From a virus: DNA of 64,000 bases. Below, piece by piece: positions 1,406 to 64,000 of this stretch. Positions within the stretch are counted from its first letter, which is position 1. Each line of letters begins with the position of its first letter. The notes under the pieces are model-generated. The model was not told the origin of the DNA and did no database searches. It saw only the letters and a program-made list of their open reading frames with translations. The stretch is taken from positions 45,418-109,417 of the IMG/VR virus record IMGVR_UViG_3300036818_000127. One strand, written 5' to 3'. The translations under genes and the position numbers were made by a program.

Positions 1406-3850
1406 TCATAGTCCCTCACTTAGTACATTCTCTAGTACTAACTGTACTGCATTTTTCTTATCCCAGAGCTTCGCCAGCATACGGGCATGATCAGCTTTCT
1501 CTATAGCATCTGTCTCTTTTTGATAGAGACTCTCAACCCTCCTGATTTCATATTCATATACCCATAGCTGAGATCGAATAAGATCCTCTAATGAAAATGG
1601 CATTACTGTTTCCTCCATGCCAAGTCCCATTGTGTACTAAGAGTCTGCTTTACAAGATTATATGCATAGGGACTAGATCCGCCATAGACCCAGAACCTTG
1701 AAAAGTGTACTGGTACCCATCGGCCTTCTTCATGGTCCCGACCAGCTAAGAAGTTTACCTCTGTCCCATACTCATCTATATAGTGGTACTGAGCGGGGAG
1801 TAGATAGGTGGAACTAAATTTCCTAGCTGCTGCCTGGAAACTCAGATGGAATCCGAGAGTTTCCAGTAGTGCGGTCACCTCCCTGACTGGAGGACATGTT
1901 CCACAAAATGCATCCAGATTAGCAAGGGTTGCTGTTTTGATCATGGTACCTCCTATTCATCTCCGTGATAATCAGTTTCGTTGTAACATTCATAAGCACT
2001 AGACAAGTCACGTTCCCATGCTGCCTCATTAGCATCTTTCATATCCGCCAATGATACAGGACTTTCTGCTAGTTGCTCTTCTATTCTATGAGTCAGATAG
2101 CCCATGAGAGCGGAGTCTATATGAAAATCATGTTGACTTCCATGCAACTCATCGTCCTCGAAGTCCTCTGGGGAACCATTATAGTCATTATAACTCTTCA
2201 TGAGGGCACGACGGTCTTCTAGGGCGGGCACCGATTTCGTCAGATCAAAATCATTGCAACCGTGATTACTAAAGCTATCTGAAGCAAGCTTTAGGAGTTC
2301 TATGAGAAGCTTCGCCTCAGCATCGGTAAGTGTAATGTTATGCATTGCTTACTCCTGCCTCTCAAAAGACCCTGTTTCAACAAAGCTTTGGAGGTATGGC
2401 AAAAGTGCTGCAACCTGCTCTCGCGAAAAGTGGGTAAAGGGCGCATGGAGGCTAATGTTGTCCTCTTCTCTTATCGCACACCGTAAAGAGTCTTTTTGTG
2501 CAACTATAGTGAATTTCTCATTATAGTTGGCTATAAAGGAAATGTACTGATCCCCAGTGGGGGAAACGCCTGTTTCAATGTTCACTTTGTTTCTCTTTTC
2601 TTGAGCCGTGATCTTTTTCTCCTGTGGGGCTTGTTAGGCCCCACTACTAACTAACTATCCTCTAGCTAAAATCAGAAGCACTGTAACGATGTATGGAAGT
2701 TGAACTTTCACATTCAAAACAGTAGTAAGTGTCATCTCCTGGAACCATATACATCCCGTGAGAATTGGATTGATTGTTCATATCATCATTCCACTCGTCC
2801 CAATTCATAGCATGCCCACATTCAAACAGAACAGTACGATTGCCGAGTGGATTGCTCTCCCAAAACCTCCTGACTATGAGTCTCCCCTCTTCTATGCGGT
2901 CTAGCTCATTAGCAGTAAGTCTCATGCTGCTTGAGGATATCTCGCCCCGACTATCAGCACATACAATATGGATACCCTCTCGGGTAATCTCTGCAATGGT
3001 GGAGCTGACCTCCATAGTGCTCGTATTAAGGCTTTCACGAAGCCTCAAATACAAGATGCCTCTTTCAAAACTGATGATATGTCTCTCGTTCATTTGTTCC
3101 TACTTTCCTGTAAATTTCACATTATACACATGAGGGCTCAAGATATTGACCTTTTGCTCAAGCCCATCTCTATCTATGAAAACTACGATTTGAGTATCAT
3201 ATGCGCCAATCTTCACTTTTCCACCTAGAGAGAGGACTTTTCCACTCTCTTTGACATACCTTCCGGTCTGCGTGTATGATCCGTGTGTAATCCTCATTTT
3301 AGTTGCTCCCCTTATGACTCTCGAAGTGCTACTTCAATAGTCATCAAAGACTGAACCTGATGGTAGAGGTCCATACTTTTTGTATGTGCTGCTACCCATC
3401 CATTTTTGTTGATTAAAGAGTCTGTTAGATCTCGCTGAAGATCTAATGCTTTGTTCAATGCTGAGATTGTATTGAGCAAGGACAATCTCCCTACTCCTAT
3501 TGATGAATCTATCCTATAAAACATTGATTTTTCCTTTACTGTTTCCTAACTTACTGAATACGGGCAGAAAATCCGCGTTTCGCTGGGACATAGGTCAATG
3601 TCCATCCGCTTGAAGTAAAGAGATTTCTGATTGTCATATACTGACTTGCTGCTTCGCTAACTGTGAGATTGTATCTCTGAATGTAACTCTGATTTCCTCT
3701 CATAACCTCATGACAGATTGCTACCCAAGTGAGCCACTGCTGAAGATGTTTTTGACTCCAACTTCGTGTAAACTCTTTATGATCTTTTGCTACCTCATAC
3801 TCAAGCATTGATGTAACTGCTTCTTTGGTCCATGCTAATGGTGCTTTCAT
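1406..3850 (-). other. operon of small phage-like hypothetical ORFs (1406-1630, 1603-1944, 1953-2345, 2349-2585, 2662-3093, 3100-3297, 3312-3524, 3551-3850)
   Basis: Closely packed co-oriented ORFs with SD sites, downstream of the conserved promoter at 3904-3932. Confidence 0.7.
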
Positions 3851-3967: not shown

Positions 3968-6900
3968 TTACCATAAATTGGTTTGAACGGCTGCTGCTAC
4001 CTTTTTAGCTTTCCGTGTCCTCTTCAAGGCATCTCGCTTAGCCCTCAGAGCTGCCCAGGGGTCCTGAGTAAGTGCTACTGGTATGATTATCATGGGCTCA
4101 ACTGATCCCTTCAATGGCTCTGTGGTAATGTCTCCTGCAAGTGGTATCTCCATATCCTCCTGCTCAGGATCGGCATCGGCTGTGATGTATTCATTCCGTG
4201 CAAGGGCTGCTTCCTCAGATGCTTTGAATTGCCTCTGGAGTTCTTCGGCCTCGGCCATCAGGTCGGCTGTGTTATTTTTCCCGCTATCAAGGGCTTCCTT
4301 GACCTGTCGGGCAAGGGCAATTGAGAAGCTACTATCGCTGTCCCCTTCATCTACTCCAAAGGAGACAAGTCCCTCTCCTGGTAGCTGGCCCTCAACCATA
4401 AAGGCAGTTTCCATCTTCCGTGACATTAATAACAAGAGACGCTGCTCCATTGTCGGGTAGACTAATATGATGACCTTGGTGTGCTTTGTCTGCTTTGGTC
4501 TATGTATCCTTCTAAAGGATTGCCGCATCTGGGATGTCGATGTCGGGACCTCAGAACAGATAATCGTGTGGAAGTCTATTAGGTCGAGACCTACTTGGAC
4601 CAGGGCGCTATTGCAGATAAGAACATTGCATCCGTTCTCGACATGCTTCTTGAGTACTGCTTCCCTTCCTAATGTATTACCTGATCTCAGGATAGCAACC
4701 TGGGGGATGTTCCCATTGCGAGGGCGGACGTGAGTCTCTATCAGGGACTTATAGCGGGGCTGGATATCATGCTCCCCTGTATTTTCGCAGTAGATGATAA
4801 CCTTTCTGTCCTGCTCCAGCTCCCCTTGGATAATGTCAATTATCCTTTGCTCTTTGGGATAGATCTCTGACTCATCGAGCTTCCTAGCCGTTCCAAGAAT
4901 GTAGCCTGTCTTTTTGACTGAGCAGACAGTCTCTTCAAAGGGCATATTAGGGTAGCGCCTCAAACATTGGAACCAAGAACCTAATGCCCTCTTATCCCCT
5001 AGTACTAGCATTGCAGCTAACTCAGCAGTGATTGTACTCTCAAACGATTTATATGCTTCTTCCAGGGGTCCCGACATTGGAATGATGTCTACCTCTTCAG
5101 AGTAGGGAGGTAAGTACGGGGCCACATCTTTAAGCTCCAGGAAGGCAGATCGTTCAAACAAAGGCGGAAGGCCATTCGGTGAGAATGCGGCCATCTCATG
5201 TTCTTCTCCACGACCGCTGGACTTTTTCTTGCTTATAGCTCCATCTCCGCCGCTATCTAAGTCATCCTTCTTTTCCTTAATCACAGTTTTTCTGGCTCCG
5301 TACCGATCAACCCATTCCCTCATGCCATCATAAGAGAATTGCTGGCGGACATCTGGATTAATACTCCAGGCGAAGGGGAATAATGATGAGGCATACCCAT
5401 TACATAAGGTCCCCGTTAGACCTAAGTAGGATTCGCATGCTCCCATCAGGGAACGTCGGGCAAAGTCGAGGGCTGTCCCCTCCTTCCCTTGGTGGATCTC
5501 ATCGCTGATCAGGAGTTTGAAGAAACCTGAATGAAACTTTCTAATATAGTCGGCCACGCTGAACCGTCGAAAGCTGGTATCCTTGACAGTCTTAGGGAGA
5601 CTTCCAAGGCTGTCTGGAAGAGGGAGGGCAACTACTGCATCGCCACTTCTCAATACTGACTTAGGCTCAAAGTCCTTCCCTGTCGTGTACTGCCATAAGG
5701 GACCACCGCAGGAACCGCACCATCTCTTTTTGTGCTTTTTAGCACTGATCCACAATTCTTGTTCAGTGACGTAAGCTCCTTCATCCTCATCCATCTCTTC
5801 TTCTATTGAAGAGAGGGCTTTTCCATTTCGCTTCTTGCGTGCTATCTGATCCTTTTTTCTTTTGTAGTCAGGATTGCTTTTCATTAAGCGATCAATGCGT
5901 GCCTGATCCTTTACAGGAGCAAAACAGCTCGGGCAGCATGGTGTCAATCTAGGAAGTTTCGTTTCCTCGTCATGCTGTACTGCCACCTTTCCATTCGCAT
6001 CTAGTGTTCGCATTGGGGAAAGCCGATATGCCAACGTCCAGGCCATACTCAACTTGGCCGTCCCATTAGGGATAATGACTAGGTGACATGGCTTCTGAGG
6101 AAGTGGGCGACCATGCAATTTTGCTTCATCATATTGCTGCCGCCAGTCCTGGAGTTCATAGTCAATCCTTTTGATAACCCTCTCAATACATCCGACTGCC
6201 GACAGTTTCTCGCCTCTCCAGAATGGATCAAATTGCCTTAGCTCTCTTGACTTCTCAGGAGTATCAATTCTCTGAACAACAATCGCATGGACATTTGGGA
6301 TAGTATCCTCTGCCTCGCGTTTCCATTTGTACGCGATGATCTCTGGGACCATCACGACAGCTGGGGAAAGCTCAATCTTCTTAGCTGTTGAGGGAAGCAT
6401 GTCAGCACAGCCATTCAGGTCCATATCCCCTAAGAAGAGGGTGGATAGGGATAAGTAGGTCTTGCCAGTCGCCATCTCGGCGATCTCACCGACCCTATTC
6501 ATAGGAGCATGATCTTTCCCTCCGACCATTGCATTCACAATAGCAAGGATAAAGCCTTTCTGTCTACCGAGCGGTTGACGTAGCATCCGAGAGAAGGCGG
6601 CGTTGGCCCAGGGGACTTGAGACGGGCTGTGATAGAGCGGGGGATTGCTCTCTAACAGCTTCTCTGTTAGGGCTCCACCAAAGTTATCCAGGAAGGAACG
6701 AAGAGACATTGTTTCATGGGGAATGCTGAGCATCCCGACCATTGGCCCTGTTTCAATCCTGATAAGCTGACCGAGGGTATCACCTTCTGTCATATCGATA
6801 CACCAGAGGGATGACTCGAAGCTATCACGTTTCTCTGTGATGATATTCTCTTCATCTTCAGAGACCTTGGTCACTTTGCGCTTTCTTGAGAAGCCCTTTA

Positions 6901-7966
6901 CAACTACTGTACGGCCATCTTTACCTACAAGATAGGCCCCATTGACTATTCCAGCAGCAGCCATGATGGCCCGATGCCCATCTTTAAGTGGCTGGACGGG
7001 CCGACCAGAGGCATTGCCTCTATCTTGATCAGACGGCCAGTGAAGAGCCTTATATTGCAGTTTGCTATAGACCCCATTCGCTGGAAGGCTAGCACCCTGC
7101 GGAACTGCAAGGAGTGCAGCAGCCTCTTCTGGATCGAACCTGCTCGGAGACCAATACTTGATAGCAGATCTTGCTATGGGGATAGAATACTGTCCATATC
7201 CATCACTCCGTGAAGTCACAGCCTCGATGGGTGAAATGTCATCATGGGGGTTATCTGTTGTGCCAAGCTCAATGAGGACTTTCTCTGTAGACCGATCTGA
7301 TCGCTGGCCGAATCCCTTCTGGGCAATCACGACGACCTGATCAAACATCTCAAACATGGGGACAGGCTTCTCTTTGTTCTCTACCATCTCAGGCGTGGCA
7401 AAGGGAGTATCAGGGAACCGCAGCACCTTGATGTCGGTGTACCACTGAGAAAGATATGATGCCCCTTTCTCAACGATCCATTGTGGGACAATCCAAATCA
7501 GGACCCCGCCAGGACATAATTTCTTCGTAGTTCGTCTGAGGAAAGTCAATTCTAGCCGCTCGCCGCCGGACTCTTTGTCCCAATCATATGGCGGGTTTAC
7601 GAATGCCAACTGGAACCCGCCATCAAGAGAGTCCCCGCTAGAGATAAGAGACTGGAAGAATGATGCATGCAGGACATCATCTAGAACTTTCCTCGCAGCC
7701 TTTACCCGCGAGATATTGGGCTCGATGCCATGGGTGAGGACTTGAGGGAATGTGTGACAGTAGTGCCACATCTGCTGAATGTGCTCTCTGTATTCCTTGG
7801 CGAGAAGTTCTAAGGCTCTCCCCTTGCCTGCACATGGATCAAGAAACCTCATCTCTTGAGCATCCCCTGATGGGTAGCGGCAACTGAGGTATTGAGCTAT
7901 CATCGATATAACTGGCTCAGGGGTTGGGTAGTACAACCCTTTGACCTGTGATTCTGTCCTAGGCAT
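3968..7966 (-). CDS. N6-adenine methyltransferase (DUF6094-like) fused to SNF2/SF2 helicase
   Basis: N-term LYYPTP, FLDPCAGKG and NPPY; helicase motifs EMATGKT, DEIH, LTGT, QVGLDL, QSFRRIHR; CxxC pairs. Confidence 0.85.
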   Translation of the reverse strand: MPRTESQVKGLYYPTPEPVISMIAQYLSCRYPSGDAQEMRFLDPCAGKGRALELLAKEYREHIQQMWHYCHTFPQVLTHGIEPNISRVKAARKVLDDVLHASFFQSLISSGDSLDGGFQLAFVNPPYDWDKESGGERLELTFLRRTTKKLCPGGVLIWIVPQWIVEKGASYLSQWYTDIKVLRFPDTPFATPEMVENKEKPVPMFEMFDQVVVIAQKGFGQRSDRSTEKVLIELGTTDNPHDDISPIEAVTSRSDGYGQYSIPIARSAIKYWSPSRFDPEEAAALLAVPQGASLPANGVYSKLQYKALHWPSDQDRGNASGRPVQPLKDGHRAIMAAAGIVNGAYLVGKDGRTVVVKGFSRKRKVTKVSEDEENIITEKRDSFESSLWCIDMTEGDTLGQLIRIETGPMVGMLSIPHETMSLRSFLDNFGGALTEKLLESNPPLYHSPSQVPWANAAFSRMLRQPLGRQKGFILAIVNAMVGGKDHAPMNRVGEIAEMATGKTYLSLSTLFLGDMDLNGCADMLPSTAKKIELSPAVVMVPEIIAYKWKREAEDTIPNVHAIVVQRIDTPEKSRELRQFDPFWRGEKLSAVGCIERVIKRIDYELQDWRQQYDEAKLHGRPLPQKPCHLVIIPNGTAKLSMAWTLAYRLSPMRTLDANGKVAVQHDEETKLPRLTPCCPSCFAPVKDQARIDRLMKSNPDYKRKKDQIARKKRNGKALSSIEEEMDEDEGAYVTEQELWISAKKHKKRWCGSCGGPLWQYTTGKDFEPKSVLRSGDAVVALPLPDSLGSLPKTVKDTSFRRFSVADYIRKFHSGFFKLLISDEIHQGKEGTALDFARRSLMGACESYLGLTGTLCNGYASSLFPFAWSINPDVRQQFSYDGMREWVDRYGARKTVIKEKKDDLDSGGDGAISKKKSSGRGEEHEMAAFSPNGLPPLFERSAFLELKDVAPYLPPYSEEVDIIPMSGPLEEAYKSFESTITAELAAMLVLGDKRALGSWFQCLRRYPNMPFEETVCSVKKTGYILGTARKLDESEIYPKEQRIIDIIQGELEQDRKVIIYCENTGEHDIQPRYKSLIETHVRPRNGNIPQVAILRSGNTLGREAVLKKHVENGCNVLICNSALVQVGLDLIDFHTIICSEVPTSTSQMRQSFRRIHRPKQTKHTKVIILVYPTMEQRLLLLMSRKMETAFMVEGQLPGEGLVSFGVDEGDSDSSFSIALARQVKEALDSGKNNTADLMAEAEELQRQFKASEEAALARNEYITADADPEQEDMEIPLAGDITTEPLKGSVEPMIIIPVALTQDPWAALRAKRDALKRTRKAKKVAAAVQTNLW

Positions 7967-36396: not shown

Positions 36397-36655
36397 ATTG
36401 CAGTACCCTCAAGGCGGGTCGATGGATTGCAACTCGACAGGAATGCGCGGCCAGGTCTCTAGCATGATCAATTGCAGTACCCTCAAGGCGGGTCGATGGA
36501 TTGCAACTGGAATATCCTCTCCAGTAGATATCAACATACATCGGATTGCAGTACCCTCAAGGCGGGTCGATGGATTGCAACTTAGAAAGTCATTCGAGAG
36601 ACACTTCCCTGATTTTGTATTGCAGTACCCTCAAGGCGGGTCGATGGATTGCAAC
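36397..36655 (-). CRISPR. CRISPR mini-array: 4 identical 37-bp repeats, 3 spacers of 37 nt
   Basis: ATTGCAGTACCCTCAAGGCGGGTCGATGGATTGCAAC at 36397, 36471, 36545 and 36619. Minus orientation is inferred from the leader-like region with TTGACA on the right and the terminator on the left. Confidence 0.95.
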
Positions 36656-37337: not shown

Positions 37338-37600
37338 AATATACCCTCAGATGGATCGATGGAAATGAAAAGTATTAGTCACCTAATTCAGTTGCAGTAT
37401 CCTCAGATGGATCGAAAAGTAAATCTGAACTATCGACTAAAGTAGTTGCAGTACCCTACCAACGGGTCGAATTGGTTAAAGTAGAGAGTATACCCCTATA
37501 CAGTTGCAGTACCCTCTAACGGGTCTAAGTGCAGAAAGCGAGTATCAAACATATGAATACCGTTGCAGTATCCTAGCTCGGATCAACAGAGCTAGGATAC
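37338..37600 (-). CRISPR. degenerate CRISPR-like array: ~5 diverged repeats with short spacers
   Basis: GTTGCAGTA(C/T)CCT...GG(A/G)TC at 37391, 37445, 37503 and 37562, plus a remnant at ~37341. Period is 54-59 nt versus 74 nt in the canonical array. Confidence 0.75.
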
Positions 37601-46981: not shown

Positions 46982-47404
46982 GTCAGGGACCTGATCCCTT
47001 AAAAGGGATGGGCTTGTAGAGATGGGGGTAGTTTTTGCCCGTCTTCTCTCTAGCTTCACCTGACCAGACCCAGCCAGGGCTGTTCCTAGAAGGCTCATAG
47101 AGAGCGGGAAACAGCTATCGGGCTACGTTAGAGGCGAAATTAGGTACCATAGGATGCGAGGGCCAGTCCGATGCTCTACGGTTGCAGGTTAAACAGGTTT
47201 ACGAGGGTTAGTGCCAGTGCTTGCAACGACAAACCGCTTTCTAACTTCGTCGAGGCCCCCATTACCTGGGAAACCAGTGGGGTTTAGCCGTTCCGTCATA
47301 AAACGGCTCCCCGCAAGGGGATTACTCCTAAACTAATCCAGCCTGCGGGCTACTTCTTTCCTCCCAACCACTAAAAGGGAATGGGTTTCCAGAAAGGATA
47401 ACTG
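46982..47404 (+). mobile_element. non-autonomous IS200/IS605-family element with IscB-type omegaRNA (HEARO-like), no iscB ORF
   Basis: GTCAGGGACC..CCCTTAAAAGGG..GGCTTG, TGACCAGAC, CTACGTT, GGATGC..CCAGTCC, TTAAACAG, AAACC..TAAC..GTCGAGGC..ATTACC; terminal hairpin shared with 9962-10390. Confidence 0.85.
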
Positions 47405-58667: not shown

Positions 58668-58958
58668 CTACTTTTTCATCTTTACATACAACCTCATCCA
58701 ATATCTTCTACTCTGTTCAATTAGCTCATCTTTCCTTGACTCAACATCTTCGAGCTGCTTTGGGTGGATCTTCCAACGTCCACCACGCCCTCTACTATTG
58801 AGCTTCCTTTCCCTGTCTGCCTGTAACCATCCCTTTCTACACCAAGTACATGCAGTCGCCAGTGATACGTGATATATCTCGCTTACTTGTCTTGTTGTGT
58901 AGTAGTCATGTTCTACACGTAAATTACTAAGAGTCTGCTGATGATACTCTGTTGCCAT
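58668..58958 (-). CDS. HTH_17/MerR-like DNA-binding protein
   Basis: YYTTRQVSEIYHVSLATACTWCRKGWLQA...GGRWKI. Confidence 0.8.
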   Translation of the reverse strand: MATEYHQQTLSNLRVEHDYYTTRQVSEIYHVSLATACTWCRKGWLQADRERKLNSRGRGGRWKIHPKQLEDVESRKDELIEQSRRYWMRLYVKMKK

Positions 58959-59227: not shown

Positions 59228-59270
59228 AAAAAGAGGCTTACTCATTGGGGGAGTAAGCCTCTTTTTTTTA
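59228..59270. terminator. bidirectional terminator after the cas12-like/wHTH operon
   Basis: aaaagaggcttactc-loop-gagtaagcctctttttt. Confidence 0.8.
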
Positions 59271-59594
59271 CGCATTGTATCTCTCTCTACTTGGGAGAAG
59301 CACATATCCATAATCTTGCACGCAATATACATAAAAGCCGGTCCATATGATTTTGCGTCGAATACGGTTGATATGCTTTTCCATCATTACCCTCGCATTC
59401 CTGTCAGCATCGCGGTTATAGACAATGCGTGCAAGATCATCATAAGTAACCGGAGTGCCATTCCTCAGGGGATAGATCAATCGGTACTCAGTCGGCGTGA
59501 AAGGTATGCCTCTACCCTCTGAGACAAGCGCATACCTTTGACTGCTCCACGGTACTCCCTTGGCCCCAGCGAGCTTCTTAAACTCTATTTGCAT
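59268..59594 (-). CDS. stand-alone OmpR/PhoB-type winged-helix (Trans_reg_C) protein
   Basis: FTPTEYRLIYPL..GTPVTYDDLARIVY...MEKHINRIRRKI...VQDYGY; starts 12 nt after the Cas12-like stop. Confidence 0.8.
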   Translation of the reverse strand: MQIEFKKLAGAKGVPWSSQRYALVSEGRGIPFTPTEYRLIYPLRNGTPVTYDDLARIVYNRDADRNARVMMEKHINRIRRKIIWTGFYVYCVQDYGYVLLPSRERYNA

Positions 59595-59606: not shown

Positions 59607-61298
59607 TCATGCTTTAAATCCTCGTGCAAACTCTTCCCATGTTGTCCGCTCTGCTTCTGGTATCTCCTTTTGCTTCTGCTTCGATCTGAGCTGTAAGAAG
59701 GGAAGCTTGCGCACAATATTGATACCACTCTGCTGTCCTACATCTGTTGTGTACCCACATTCAATGCAATGAAAGAGGTTCTTATCTTCTTTGTCGAAGT
59801 TCTCTTTGCTCACACAGCCACATTGCGAACAAGTGGAAGCCGTGTAAGCACTGCTGACTTTACGGAGTGGTGTTAGACCAGCAATGTCTAGTTTGGTCGC
59901 TAGGAGGTCCTGGAGCTTCTGATATTGCCTTCTCTGGAGTATACGGTTGAAGGCTTTCCCCTTCCCTCCAACACGCTTTTTCGGGGCAATGTAGCTTAGA
60001 TCTTCTACGATCACCTGGGACTGATGTGTACGGGCCATCTCGACAATACTATTAGCTACTTGGTGGACATGGCGGTCTGCAATCCGTGCGCGTCTCCTAT
60101 CCCCTTTCGTTGTTTTTCCCTTTTTCTGCTTGATAGCTATATTCTTTTCAATCGCACCAATTAATCCGTTTAATTCATCGGTACTAACATTGAAAGTTTC
60201 AATGACTTCCTTCCCGTCCAGGGAAACGACAGCCCCAGATGCTAAATAAGAAATAGATCGGTCAATACCTAGGTAGGTCGCTGGCTTTATTCGCTCAGGT
60301 CTGGGGAACTGGAAGGCGACATGGAGCTGGTACTTATCTCCATATTTCATCAGTTTAGCAGACACAGGCCAAGCAGGCTTTACACTAGTATCGCCTGACC
60401 TCTGCGGAAGGAAGGCATGTTTAGTAAAACGTAGCATGTTCTCATGCCACCTTCCCATTTCTAGAGGGACAAGAATGGAGCGAGTCCCATTTCCAAAGGA
60501 CCTGACCTCCTGATACCTGCCCATTCCAAGATGGTAATCCCCCAAGATAGTGTGAGTACTTGTACTGTACCGCTTCAGTCCTGTTTTATGTTCCTGGAAA
60601 CCTTTGTTCCGCATGTAAATATTCTCAGGTTCACGGATATCGATGTATTGTCCATCTATATCGATCCTTCTTCCATGATTGGACAATTCTCCGATAACAT
60701 ACAGTCTCACATAGAATGTGCGCGTCTCTGGATTGTAGAAAATACGGAATCCCTGATCAGGCATGCTATTCCCGAAAGATAAGGGCACCAGCCCTCGCTG
60801 TCGTGTGCGGAGCAGTTGGTCGCGGAGTGTATTCTCTTCTTCTAGGTCATCTGAGATAGTCCGCAGACCTTCTAGTGCGGCCTCTCGCTTTGCATCACGG
60901 TTATCTTCTTCAACCCTGTTAGGGTAGGATGGCTTCTGCTTTTCTGTCAATGACAGTTCAGCGAAACTCAAGAGGGTGCTAGCAATATCTGACTTCATCG
61001 ATGCACGCAGCCGGGCCTCTAGAGGTTCAAGTAACTGGTCCAGATCTGGTATCTTGTTCGTTCGGAAAAGAGCAGTTTCTAATGTCCTAGCATTCGTTAG
61101 CTCTTCTCCATTGCTCTCGCGTACTGCAAATACAGCCATTGCATGCAATTCCTCTGCTGTATAGCTAGAGAAGAAATCAAGGATTGATGTGTAGGCTCTT
61201 GTGTAATTCTGCAATGCCTCATCAAGCACTGCTCTGATGTGTTTCGTGGGGTTGTGGATGGTGAACACTGCTGTTCGGTGAATGTGTTTTCCTGGCAT
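59607..61298 (-). CDS. Cas12/TnpB-family RNA-guided protein (563 aa, Cas12f-like size), RuvC-III apparently degenerate
   Basis: RuvC-I YLGIDRSI, bridge helix, RuvC-II VIVEDL, AYTASTCSQCG..FHCIECGY zinc finger, RuvC-III TDVGQQSGINI. Confidence 0.9.
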   Translation of the reverse strand: MPGKHIHRTAVFTIHNPTKHIRAVLDEALQNYTRAYTSILDFFSSYTAEELHAMAVFAVRESNGEELTNARTLETALFRTNKIPDLDQLLEPLEARLRASMKSDIASTLLSFAELSLTEKQKPSYPNRVEEDNRDAKREAALEGLRTISDDLEEENTLRDQLLRTRQRGLVPLSFGNSMPDQGFRIFYNPETRTFYVRLYVIGELSNHGRRIDIDGQYIDIREPENIYMRNKGFQEHKTGLKRYSTSTHTILGDYHLGMGRYQEVRSFGNGTRSILVPLEMGRWHENMLRFTKHAFLPQRSGDTSVKPAWPVSAKLMKYGDKYQLHVAFQFPRPERIKPATYLGIDRSISYLASGAVVSLDGKEVIETFNVSTDELNGLIGAIEKNIAIKQKKGKTTKGDRRRARIADRHVHQVANSIVEMARTHQSQVIVEDLSYIAPKKRVGGKGKAFNRILQRRQYQKLQDLLATKLDIAGLTPLRKVSSAYTASTCSQCGCVSKENFDKEDKNLFHCIECGYTTDVGQQSGINIVRKLPFLQLRSKQKQKEIPEAERTTWEEFARGFKA

Positions 61299-61386: not shown

Positions 61387-61415
61387 TTGACAACTTGATT
61401 AGCGGCTATTATACT
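61387..61415 (+). promoter_or_regulatory. sigma70 promoter for the ncRNA/array, divergent from the cas12-like gene
   Basis: TTGACA(61387-92)-17 nt-TATACT(61410-15). Confidence 0.85.
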
Positions 61416-61421
61416 CTGCTC

Positions 61422-61925
61422 TGTAATCTTCGGATTGCTTGGGCTCGTGAGCTACGGCTCGGTAGTTGCAGGCCCAATCCCTGGGAGAGTGCCGTATGAC
61501 TTCTGATTCCCTGTTGAGGGATAAGAAGCGAGTCATGGTCATATAGGGTACATTCGTGTGCCTTGTGACTATGCCTTCTCTGATTCCCGATATCGGGAAA
61601 AGGAAGCTTGACACCTTCTGGAGAGAACAACGCCACAAAACCGGAAACGGTACTCGCTTCGCGGTGGCTCCCTTTGGGCCAACTCTCATGTGCAGCACGA
61701 TGAATGAGCAGGGGATGTTGCAACTCTGCTAATCTACTGATGCTTTGATGGGATACACTGCTACAGCCTGGCAGTGGGACGGCTCACTCTCATGTTGCAT
61801 TAGAACTTGTTGAGACGCTCCTTTACAACTGAAGGAATGAAGCCTTTCAGTATTTGTTGCATTATGCTGAAATGCGGTTCTACCTGCTCATAGCTAGTTG
61901 TTGCATAGTTGATGAGCAGGTAGGT
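61422..61925 (+). ncRNA. structured tracr/scout-like RNA leader
   Basis: Dense hairpins with UUCG and GAAA tetraloops (gtaatc-ttcg-gattgc, agggtaca-ttcg-tgtgcctt, accg-gaaa-cggt); four hairpins with UGUUGCA loops; no credible ORF. Confidence 0.75.
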
Positions 61926-61939
61926 GTCTATAAGAGAGT

Positions 61940-64000
61940 CTGTGCAGCTATGTAAGAGGATATATAGCGCAGCATTGCTTGTAACCAATAAGGATAGATG
62001 ACAACATAGAGTATAGGCTGTCGACTGCAACCCGTTACTTGATATGTCAGAGTGTAACTTAGATGGATCTATGCAACCACGGGCTTTTATTTGCAATTGC
62101 AGCAAGCAATATGGCAAGATGCAACAAATGGACAATTTATATGATCCTGCAACCATCAGACAGGGCTACAGCCTGCTCGCTAACCATGCAACCTTGGGAG
62201 AGTTCTGATCGCAATACTGAAGTAGTAGGTGATAATTGCAAGAGGCTGACTGGAAGAGGGAGGGCGCAGCTAGTGCAACCTCAAGCAGTATCAGGGATGC
62301 AACTGATGTGATTGGAGAGGAATGCAGCAACTAGGCACTCCCATCGAGATGCAATACTGGCGATCTATCCATGTAACCATCTTCGTCGGTCCTGCATGCA
62401 ACGTTCTTGACCCTTACTGCAACAAGCAGTTCGCAATCGCAACTTGTATGGTTTAGGCTAGTATTATCCATGTAACTATTGAACGCTGTCCGGCAATGAT
62501 GAGCAACGGTGAAAGGCAAAGTCTAGTGTGCTGCAACTATCTTATAGTCTAGACTAAATGCAATGAATATCAAGGTAAGCCTCGCAACCATTTCAATGCA
62601 ACTAAGAGAAGTATAGGTAGTATAGTGCAACTCACAAATGACGGCAACATCAAGAAGTCACAGTATGCAACCAAGCTACGCGGGACCTTGCAACAACGGG
62701 CAATAGCTATATGCAACAAGAATGTCATATTGGACAGTGCAACAACGAGTAGAAGATTTGCATGCAGCACAAATGAAATACTACATAGCAACATATGGAC
62801 CAGCGATCAAGGGAACTGCAACAAGAGGGCGTTGTCTGGAGGATGTAACACAAGGAGCTAGATAGCGATTGCAACTTTCATAGAGTCACGCAACTGTAGT
62901 AGATGCAATGGTACAAGCTCGTTCACAACTAACATGACACTGCAACAAGCAAGAGACACTGCAACAAAAAGGATATAGGGACAATTGCAATAATCTACGA
63001 TGGCCCCATGCAACCTGATAGAGGAAGATATTCAATAATTGTAACTGAAACCTCCGCAACTATAGAATATGCATTCTAGACTAAGAATTATGCAACTAGT
63101 TGGTTGCTAAGGCATAATGCAGCTATCAGCGGCTAGATATGCAACTTACTTTCAACACACTCTTGCAACATCCATCTCGACATCTCAATTCTATCAATGC
63201 AGCGACTTTGATGTTCCTTACATGCAATGAGTAGAGAAAATGCAACAGCAAAAGAGTGAAGAACGCAACTATCATTGACCAGCTATGCAACTATGGTTCT
63301 CATATCATAATAGTTTATACGCAACTTCTGTAGAGGCATCATGCAACATGTATTGAAAGCATTGCAACCTCATCTGACAGCATCCTGATGCAACATGATT
63401 TCTCTTTGTACATGCATCTCGCAACAACTGGCAATGACATCTACAACGGTAGAGGAATGGGGCATAGCATGCAACTCAGGCAAGTTATCACTGCAACATG
63501 GGGAAGTCTTGCGATATCAATGCAACCAGTGTTCACATACGTGGAAGGAATGCAACATGTTCAATAATATGCAGCCTCAATGGATTTTATGCAACTATTA
63601 GGTAAATAGAGAGCTATGCAACTGATTAACCCTATTCACTCAATATGCAACAAATAGGTGGTACTGCAACACTGATGAGGGTTTTGCATCATCATACCCA
63701 AGATGCAACTATGGCTTTTTGAGGCAACTACGAACATGTCAAATATATGTAACGATCAAGAGAGAACCTAGTGCAACCATGGGCGGGCATGCAATGAGTA
63801 GACATAGCAACAACTGAGTGCAACATTCTTGATCGAGAGAAATGCAACATAAGGGTTATCATAGCAATAGCCAAGCATGAATGATGCAACCATGACAGAG
63901 CAAGCAACACACATGTGGTACATTGCAGCATTGGAAAGCAACTAGAGGGGAAATAAGCAGCAGGTAAACGGAATAATAGATGCAACAATATCTGTAGGAC
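61940..64000 (+). repeat. mini-repeat guide-like array: (A)TGCAAC every ~20-30 nt with unique spacers; runs off the window end
   Basis: About 43 exact TGCAAC plus ~40 single-variant copies by eye, all on the + strand, period not a multiple of 3, no long ORF. Confidence 0.85.

Follow-up and report, generated by a model that had tools for sequence, protein, structure and literature searches.

A possible Cas12f-like guide array in a soil phage, with the repeat reduced to a short scaffold-pairing handle

In the type V-F CRISPR effector Un1Cas12f1, a 6-nucleotide (nt) loop of stem 3 of the trans-activating CRISPR RNA (tracrRNA) pairs with the repeat beside the guide and positions the guide, and activity drops only moderately when the second, longer repeat:anti-repeat duplex is deleted (PMC8053092). 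A pseudoknot with the last repeat bases has been described as general for Cas12 tracrRNAs (Cas12 hacker preprint, bioRxiv 10.1101/2025.01.20.633832). Furthermore, Cas12k elements carry truncated repeat-spacer units with 17-bp spacers at or beyond the end of the array (bioRxiv 10.1101/2021.02.06.429022), and for a natural dead Cas12f a guide of 14 nt is optimal (PMC13472631). Arrays built of repeats that keep only this pairing handle were not described in the literature searched. Here we analysed the last 64 kb (64,000 nucleotides, hereafter the window) of IMG/VR record IMGVR_UViG_3300036818_000127, a soil phage of 109,417 bases, in which the motif TGCAAC recurs on one strand in a long array (array A) beside a gene for a Cas12f-like protein.

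Array A is probably, in our judgement, a phage-borne guide array derived from a type V-F (Cas12f-like) system, in which the repeat has been cut to its last 6–8 nt and persists as a pseudoknot-forming handle. That it functions in this form, with a 6-nt handle as the whole repeat and more than 100 guides of ~18 nt carried on one transcript for a separate scaffold and a nuclease-impaired Cas12f-like reader, is a bolder proposal that we advance tentatively. A preliminary description of the window had already suggested a guide-like array for binding without cleavage. This view gained support from the neighbouring Cas12f-fold gene with its RuvC-III aspartate replaced, from a promoter and a GUUGCA-containing scaffold and from the recurrence of the whole arrangement in related loci; the RNA product, its processing and its targets are proposed on sequence grounds.

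Anatomy of the array

The by-eye counts of the preliminary description, about 43 exact TGCAAC copies and about 85–90 units on one strand, agreed closely with a motif scan, which located 43 exact copies at the positions it listed (plus strand, 62026 to 63986) and, when one mismatch was tolerated, 85 units (61943 to 63981), all on the plus strand with none in reverse. Its extent of 61940–64000 was too short at the end: the sequence beyond the window shows the array running ~640 bases further, across the junction of the circular record, to genome position ~640, and in full array A comprises 106 units over ~2.59 kb. This whole array holds 52 copies of TGCAAC against none of GTTGCA, while composition predicts 0.65 exact and ~12 one-mismatch copies; 54 of its units, about half, are variants. 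The extended consensus is (A/G)AUGCAAC(A/U), giving a conserved unit length of 6–8 nt. Copies of TGCAAC at window positions 2143–2499 lie within coding sequence and are apparently coincidental.

The spacing had been called quasi-regular, which a formal test upheld without making it strictly periodic: the mean interval is 24.4 nt with a standard deviation of 8.6 (coefficient of variation (CV) 0.35), whereas in 2000 random placements the CV was 0.97 on average and 0.73 at its lowest, and 76% of the intervals measure 15–32 nt against 30% under random placement. The spacers (unit minus 6 nt) have a median of 18 nt and an interquartile range of 13–22 nt, with 68% falling in the 13–25 nt originally proposed; they are also unique, as had been claimed, with five shared 9-mers against 4.0 expected. 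No open reading frame (ORF) had been seen, and each of the six frames of array A indeed contains 29–49 stops; a coding reading was rejected on these stops and on the absence of meaningful tblastx similarity between arrays. The array RNA is predicted to fold less stably than 20 of 20 shuffled sequences (z = +2.3), as expected for single-stranded guides.

Array A contains no canonical repeats, and an Rfam scan of the window gave no match over the array region. Of the features by which CRISPR array finders operate, the conserved unit of 6–8 nt falls short of the direct repeats of ~23–55 nt, the spacers are unique and of similar length though looser in length than those of canonical arrays, and an adjoining cas effector gene and a promoter-bearing leader are both present. 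The coordinates of the array and of the other features of the phage are collected in Table 1.

Table 1. Features of the phage genome considered here; positions are those of the window except where the genome is named.
Feature	Position	Strand	Evidence
Protospacer-like match to the spacer at window 62243	5607..5629	+	22/23 bases, blastn-short E = 8.9e-6
DUF6094 methyltransferase + Helicase_C fusion, 1332 aa, contains 5607..5629	3968-7966	-	Pfam
Canonical CRISPR array, four 37-nt repeats, period 74	36398..36655	ambiguous	repeat pattern
Four shortened repeat units, period 54-59	37386..37590	-	short covarying hairpin + ACUGCAAC
HEARO RNA (IscB-type omega RNA)	46982-47265	+	102.9 bits vs gathering score 83
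HTH_17 gene downstream of the effector	58668..58958	-	Pfam 2.3e-6
Winged-helix (Trans_reg_C-like) gene	59268..59594	-	Pfam 1e-5, just below cut-off
Cas12f-like effector gene, 563 aa (P0001)	59607..61298	-	Pfam Cas12f1-like TNB domain, 1.6e-8
Sigma-70-type promoter (TTGACA, 17 nt, TATACT)	61387..61415	+	11/12 consensus positions
Putative tracrRNA-like scaffold	61420..61700	+	homologous leaders + RNAalifold covariation
Four further (U)GUUGCA(UU) copies	61700..61925	+	GTTGCA at 61717, 61794, 61856, 61900
Mini-repeat array A	61943..64000	+	85 units, at most 1 mismatch to TGCAAC
Array B, leader + array, ~54 units	genome 32,880-31,430, outside window (L003)	-	paralogous scaffold

Predicted scaffold pairing and recurrence of the architecture

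The family of the effector comprises 29 members in a collection of 5.8 billion proteins, some of them named after Ktedonobacter metagenome-assembled genomes, and eight metagenome contigs with homologs were recovered. Two lineages of soil origin, each backed by redundant contigs, are related to the phage: L009 (near-copies L010 and L014) and L011 (near-copy L008), with effectors 66–67% identical to the phage protein P0001. Both L009 and L011 have, at the corresponding position, the hexamers of the array A promoter, which points away from the effector gene. The ~280 nt after the promoter are homologous to the leaders of array B, L009 and L011, and RNAalifold on the four leader sequences yielded 40 predicted pairs, 21 of them with compensatory changes. 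Within the covarying stem of this tracrRNA-like scaffold, a GUUGCA at 61465–61470 is predicted to be unpaired; GGUAGUUGCA is likewise predicted to be single-stranded, with an inner hairpin on one side and the 3' strand of the stem on the other. On sequence evidence, this provides the unpaired tracrRNA segment that pairs with the repeat 3' end in type V-F systems.

Two of the four additional GUUGCA copies between scaffold and array occupy 10-nt hairpin loops (hairpins 61707–61730 and 61845–61872), where they are predicted to be exposed, and the stretch as a whole folds with z = −3.46; L009 and L011 contain 2–7 extra copies without clear hairpins. The extended form (U)GUUGCA(UU) is the exact complement of the extended mini-repeat consensus and would form nine pairs (−9.7 kcal/mol), and the core UGCAAC:GUUGCA duplex six pairs (−6.1 kcal/mol).

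Three lines of sequence evidence point to a motif that acts through RNA pairing, namely the spectrum of its variants, the covariation of the anti-repeat and a shared spacer anchored at the motif. In the four mini-arrays together (7.0 kb), TGCAAC occurs 158 times against 2.4 expected, and the enriched core variants are TGTAAC (16), TGCGAC (13), TGCAGC (29) and TGCAAT (24), precisely those in which G·U pairing preserves all six pairs with GUUGCA; the fifth core transition, TACAAC, has 5 copies, and none of the ten core transversions is enriched, all being at background. Because transition bias alone would not spare the G-to-A change, this wobble-limited spectrum points to pairing between RNAs. 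Across distant homologs, the anti-repeat covaries with the 3' end of the repeat: L012 and L013 (effectors 34% identical) have GUA-CCCUCA at the homologous scaffold position and repeats ending in UGAGGG, and in L015, which is more distant, GUCACAG occurs once in the whole contig, within the loop of a hairpin that lies between the gene and the array, and the repeats end in CUGUGAC. Finally, a few units are common to different loci, the clearest being one in array B and L009 that is identical over TGCAAC plus 15 nt and divergent thereafter; by our arithmetic, the chance of such an anchored 15-nt match among 46 × 59 unit pairs is ~2.5e-6. Since the shared unit is anchored at the motif, its conserved and presumably functional part would lie 3' of the motif, as in type V CRISPR RNAs (crRNAs).

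These results bear directly on a reading in which the array consists of double-stranded DNA binding sites (a centromere, an origin or a packaging region) for a winged-helix or helix-turn-helix (HTH) protein and has no RNA role, an alternative that the preliminary description had raised for the winged-helix protein. Short-motif arrays on one strand are known from regions of partition and replication, the effector gene has two small HTH genes as neighbours, and array A spans the junction of the circular record. The first and last 127 bases of the record are identical, however, and in our view this end overlap looks like the assembler k-mer overlap of a circular assembly rather than a mapped genome terminus. 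Furthermore, the winged-helix gene, which has no tblastn match in L008–L015 and is thus missing from the homologous array-bearing loci, is not a conserved component of the system, and the HTH_17 gene is kept beside the homologous effector in L009 and L010 only (72% identity, tblastn), so that the co-inherited gene for a cognate DNA-binding protein that marks centromere and iteron arrays was not found. Ahead of the array lie instead a promoter that is conserved and a covarying RNA in which the motif has its exact complement. In distant homologs motif and scaffold loop have changed in concert, and the variants of the motif follow G·U rules that are irrelevant to duplex DNA. DNA sites without an RNA product are thereby left very improbable.

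The arrangement itself recurs in the two related lineages. In L009 and L011, a promoter is followed by a leader/scaffold of ~290 nt, by 6–7 canonical 37-nt repeats (starting GUUGCAAU, ending AUUGCAAC, with spacers of ~36 nt) and by ~60 handle-only units of (A)UGCAAC plus 13–25 nt. The genes flanking these loci are syntenic with those of the phage at 64–72% DNA identity, while the arrays cannot be aligned. Spacers are seldom shared between arrays: when their first 9 nt were compared and one mismatch was allowed, sharing amounted to 3 against 1.1 expected between array A and L009 (p ~0.09) and to 3 against 0.37 between array B and L009 (p ~0.01), with other pairs at chance. The L009 and L010 arrays are identical, hence no gain or loss of units can be observed between them; 59 differences between these contigs, otherwise 98–100% identical, are clustered within L009 3630–3876 (promoter, 5' end of the scaffold and effector N-terminus) in what looks like a recombination patch. 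Right after the end of its mini-array, L009 carries on the minus strand (101–1378) an ordinary TnpB-type ORF (425 aa) whose N-terminus is of the usual AYKYRIYP type.

A graded series of repeat lengths exists within the one phage genome, formed by the canonical array, a set of shortened units and the mini-arrays. The strand of the canonical array is ambiguous because its repeat ends are near-palindromic (TTGCAG... / ...TTGCAAC). The shortened units, ~740 bases beyond it, are intermediate between full repeats and handle-only units. Array B shares the canonical-then-mini layout of L009 and L011, with about six 36-nt repeats and ~35-nt spacers followed by ~45 handle-only units, and some of its units retain GGGGAUUGAUGCAAC.

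Such intermediate forms (the GGGGAUUGAUGCAAC units of array B and the shortened hairpin units) are also what would be left if the mini-arrays were the worn-out tail of ordinary CRISPR arrays, with repeats and spacers eroded by deletion, the motif decaying most slowly or homogenised, and the units unused. The position of the mini units agrees with this, since the canonical repeats of array B and L009 are leader-proximal and the mini units distal, where the oldest CRISPR units lie, and so does the variant motif in half of the units. Erosion would not, however, be expected to leave 158 exact copies strictly on one strand, and the restriction to wobble-compatible variants points to ongoing selection for pairing, not neutral decay, which moreover would not trim spacers of ~36 nt to a regular 18 nt across four arrays that together hold more than 250 units. 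Some 4 kb of such sequence is retained in a 109-kb phage, related phages keep the array at the same place despite different spacers, and array A lacks canonical repeats altogether. We consider a worn tail unlikely.

Further contigs carry short-repeat arrays of other kinds. On the plus strand of L013 (2160–3100), a scaffold and an irregular array lie downstream of the gene, with ~17-nt repeats ending in GAUGAGG and spacers of ~12–30 nt interrupted by some long gaps; given these irregular short units, array shrinkage may be a habit of this effector family. When the virus collection was scanned for three consecutive ATGCAAC at guide spacing, nearly all of the matches listed were coding tandem repeats. 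The unrelated viral contig L088 (IMG/VR 2728369220_000001) has AATGCAACC ~15 times on one strand (5800–6300, plus) at irregular distances of 9–66 nt that are not multiples of three, and is possibly another short-motif array. The conserved scaffold motif had no match in the virus collection, and a scan of the genome collection for this repeat type returned mostly single chance hits and no Ktedonobacteria.

Effector, targets and proposed function

The gene for P0001, the sole Cas12-like gene of the phage, is ~650 bases from the first array unit and oriented away from it. Its best PADLOC/NCBIfam profiles are Cas12f, Cas14b and Cas12f2, all far under the curated cut-offs; the NCBIfam Cas12f2 match (69 bits against a cut-off of 450) is confined to the C-terminal half, and the N-terminal 320 residues match no profile. 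A confident AlphaFold2 model (mean predicted local distance difference test (pLDDT) score 84.5) returned AsCas12f, OsCas12f, Un1Cas12f1 and CasX as top Foldseek matches, with E-values down to 2.7e-16 and template modelling (TM) scores up to 0.66 on the target. As modelled, P0001 has the Cas12f fold and the architecture of type V-F effectors (WED/REC, RuvC and a zinc-ribbon TNB domain), whose size is ~400–700 aa.

The protein keeps the RuvC-I Asp, the RuvC-II Glu and the CxxC pairs of the zinc ribbon. In an alignment of 23 family members, most homologs carry the RuvC-III Asp as part of a HAD motif, where P0001 instead has Gly and P0002–P0004, the three proteins closest to it, have Tyr; the P0001 position aligns with the engineered Asp-to-Ala substitution of dead PlmCasX. 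P0001 thus departs from the intact D, E, D triad of type V-F, and because this aspartate is replaced it has likely lost DNA cleavage. One Rfam match elsewhere in the window, a HEARO RNA, indicates that the phage also carries an IscB-type RNA-guided element.

Members of the family with an intact active site exist in metagenomes, some of them binned with Ktedonobacteria, and they allow a different use of the array, as an RNA decoy, which the preliminary description had also raised in the form of a sponge for host CRISPR effectors. In this use ~100 handles would sequester the tracrRNA or effector belonging to a related nuclease-active Cas12, either the host's or a rival phage's, and load it with short guides of no use. 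Two preprints describe the inhibition of CRISPR effectors by phage RNAs that imitate repeats or whole guide RNAs (10.64898/2026.06.03.729762 and 10.64898/2026.06.01.729453), and a sponge would be well served by the many copies in the array and by its low structure. A decoy, however, needs neither an effector nor a scaffold of its own, yet the array is always linked to both, under one promoter, and in every locus this linkage, together with the absence of a repeat hairpin, departs from a Racr-like decoy (RNA anti-CRISPR), which offers a repeat structure recognised by the host and brings no effector. Unique spacers of guide length, and a handle-anchored spacer conserved between loci, would bring a decoy no gain. 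The host system, too, is hypothetical: 401 sampled Chloroflexota genomes contained no full-length family gene, only matches of TnpB size to the C-terminal half, and protein-based scans of the virus and genome collections found no relatives of the effector. On these grounds the decoy seems improbable to us.

Under the guide-array reading, a single promoter would drive transcription of the tracrRNA-like scaffold and then of the array. Each unit, UGCAAC plus ~15–20 nt of unique sequence, would be released as a minimal crRNA; its handle would pair with the unpaired GUUGCA of the scaffold to give a short repeat:anti-repeat duplex (a pseudoknot), and this duplex would position the guide as in solved Cas12f complexes, with the unique stretch 3' of the handle acting as the guide once loaded into P0001. 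Because the effector has no third RuvC aspartate, the complexes would most likely bind and block DNA instead of cutting it. Competing phages or host genes are possible targets.

Searching with the spacers, which the preliminary description had proposed, was productive within the phage, where a single protospacer-like match was found; the canonical spacers gave no meaningful match among GenBank phages, the exact 23-nt self-matching spacer had no hit in the IMG/VR virus collection, and no attachment-site match was found for the spacers. The match in the phage begins at the first spacer base and has its one mismatch at guide position 7. It could represent a self-regulatory site, or a spacer directed against the homologous gene of rival phages; one case is not decisive.

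Several observations weigh against the guide-array reading. The canonical repeats end in AUUGCAAC and the mini-repeat consensus is AAUGCAAC; because the two differ, the mini units are not plain remnants of the present repeats. Leader B has GUUACA in place of GUUGCA. Six pairs are weak for an interaction in trans, and in solved systems the handle duplex comes alongside a longer duplex or a covalent link. A stoichiometry of ~100 units to a single scaffold is odd, and neither a processing site nor a nuclease for the release of units was evident. Genes for Cas1, Cas2 and Cas4 were not found in the phage, and we know of no mechanism for adding units with a 6-nt repeat. Among the ~160 mini-spacers compared with the phage and the related contigs, only one has a recognisable match, from which no protospacer-adjacent motif can be derived. 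Lastly, the ~12 one-mismatch units expected by composition, roughly a quarter of the 54, may be chance hits; because about half of the units are variant and these ~12 are perhaps fortuitous, part of array A may be dead.

If the units are used, the natural lower limit of a CRISPR repeat would be the few bases that pair with the tracrRNA beside the guide, and, at ~24 bases per guide, the array would be more compact than any other natural format known for multiplexed guides. It would give a phage a massively multiplexed system for DNA binding (silencing), of practical interest for Cas12f-based CRISPR interference. Such arrays would be invisible to array finders and perhaps widely overlooked in phages. 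They would also imply that crRNAs can arise with neither a repeat hairpin nor a long tracrRNA duplex and that units are gained without copying of a full repeat, and the origin and processing of such 6-nt-repeat units come into question. The locus bears, furthermore, on the path that connects the guide RNAs of TnpB (scaffold plus guide), the truncated units of Cas12k and full CRISPR arrays.

Comparison with described systems

Helper RNAs that act through a short pairing are not confined to Cas12f. In the scoutRNA systems of Cas12c and Cas12d, which Harrington and colleagues are said to have described in 2020, the helper RNA reportedly recognises the crRNA repeat via a few complementary bases; these systems differ from the phage locus in keeping full-length repeats and in having large effectors, unlike that of the phage in size. 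Racrs and the solitary repeat units of phages resemble the locus as phage-borne, repeat-derived RNA elements without adaptation genes, but they keep the repeat hairpin and act on the Cas proteins of the host, whereas the phage array consists of handles only and comes with an effector of its own. The pseudoknot motif of Cas12p (the 'Cas12 hacker'), AAAC:UUUG, differs from the phage motif.

Type V-F systems with a tracrRNA (Un1Cas12f1/Cas14a, AsCas12f) offer a closer parallel. The Cas14a1 repeat ends in ...GGAATGCAAC, and the phage genome also holds canonical 37-nt repeats with GTTGCA.../...TGCAAC ends. Common to both are a Cas12f-fold effector, a long structured tracrRNA and last repeat bases that pair with an unpaired tracrRNA segment beside the guide (AR:R 1, PMC8053092), this pairing being predicted in the phage. 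In contrast, the phage repeat measures only 6–8 nt and the second, longer repeat:anti-repeat duplex is absent, the spacers are ~18 nt instead of ~36 nt, and there are more than 100 units; the phage system also has neither the RuvC-III aspartate nor adaptation genes, and its protein scores far below the Cas12f cut-offs.

The nuclease-dead derivatives of TnpB and Cas12f that control transcription (TldR and dCas12f-sigmaE), some of them phage-encoded, share with the phage system a compact RuvC-impaired effector and short guides (14 nt being optimal for dCas12f, PMC13472631). They use one or few single guide RNAs against known host targets, whereas the phage has a separate scaffold and a huge multi-guide array, with no sigma-factor partner visible.

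The units of type V-K Cas12k (att-crRNA, 'delocalised crRNA') are alike in combining the tracrRNA-pairing part of a repeat with a 17-bp spacer and a nuclease-dead Cas12 (bioRxiv 10.1101/2021.02.06.429022). Truncated units of this type, with the pairing part only, a spacer of ~17 bp and a distal position, were found in array B and L009, and the median spacer of array A is 18 nt. The remaining hallmarks of V-K, a Cas12k with Tn7-like genes and an attachment-site spacer, were not found: the effector is nearest to Cas12f and CasX, and no tnsB, tnsC, tniQ or other transposon genes are visible around the locus. Each Cas12k element, moreover, has one unit, which keeps a longer remnant of the repeat and whose known self target is a tRNA gene, in contrast to the more than 100 tandem units with a 6–8-nt remnant in the phage. 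Taken together, the closest described counterparts of the phage array are these single truncated Cas12k units and the pseudoknot duplex of Cas12f guide RNAs.

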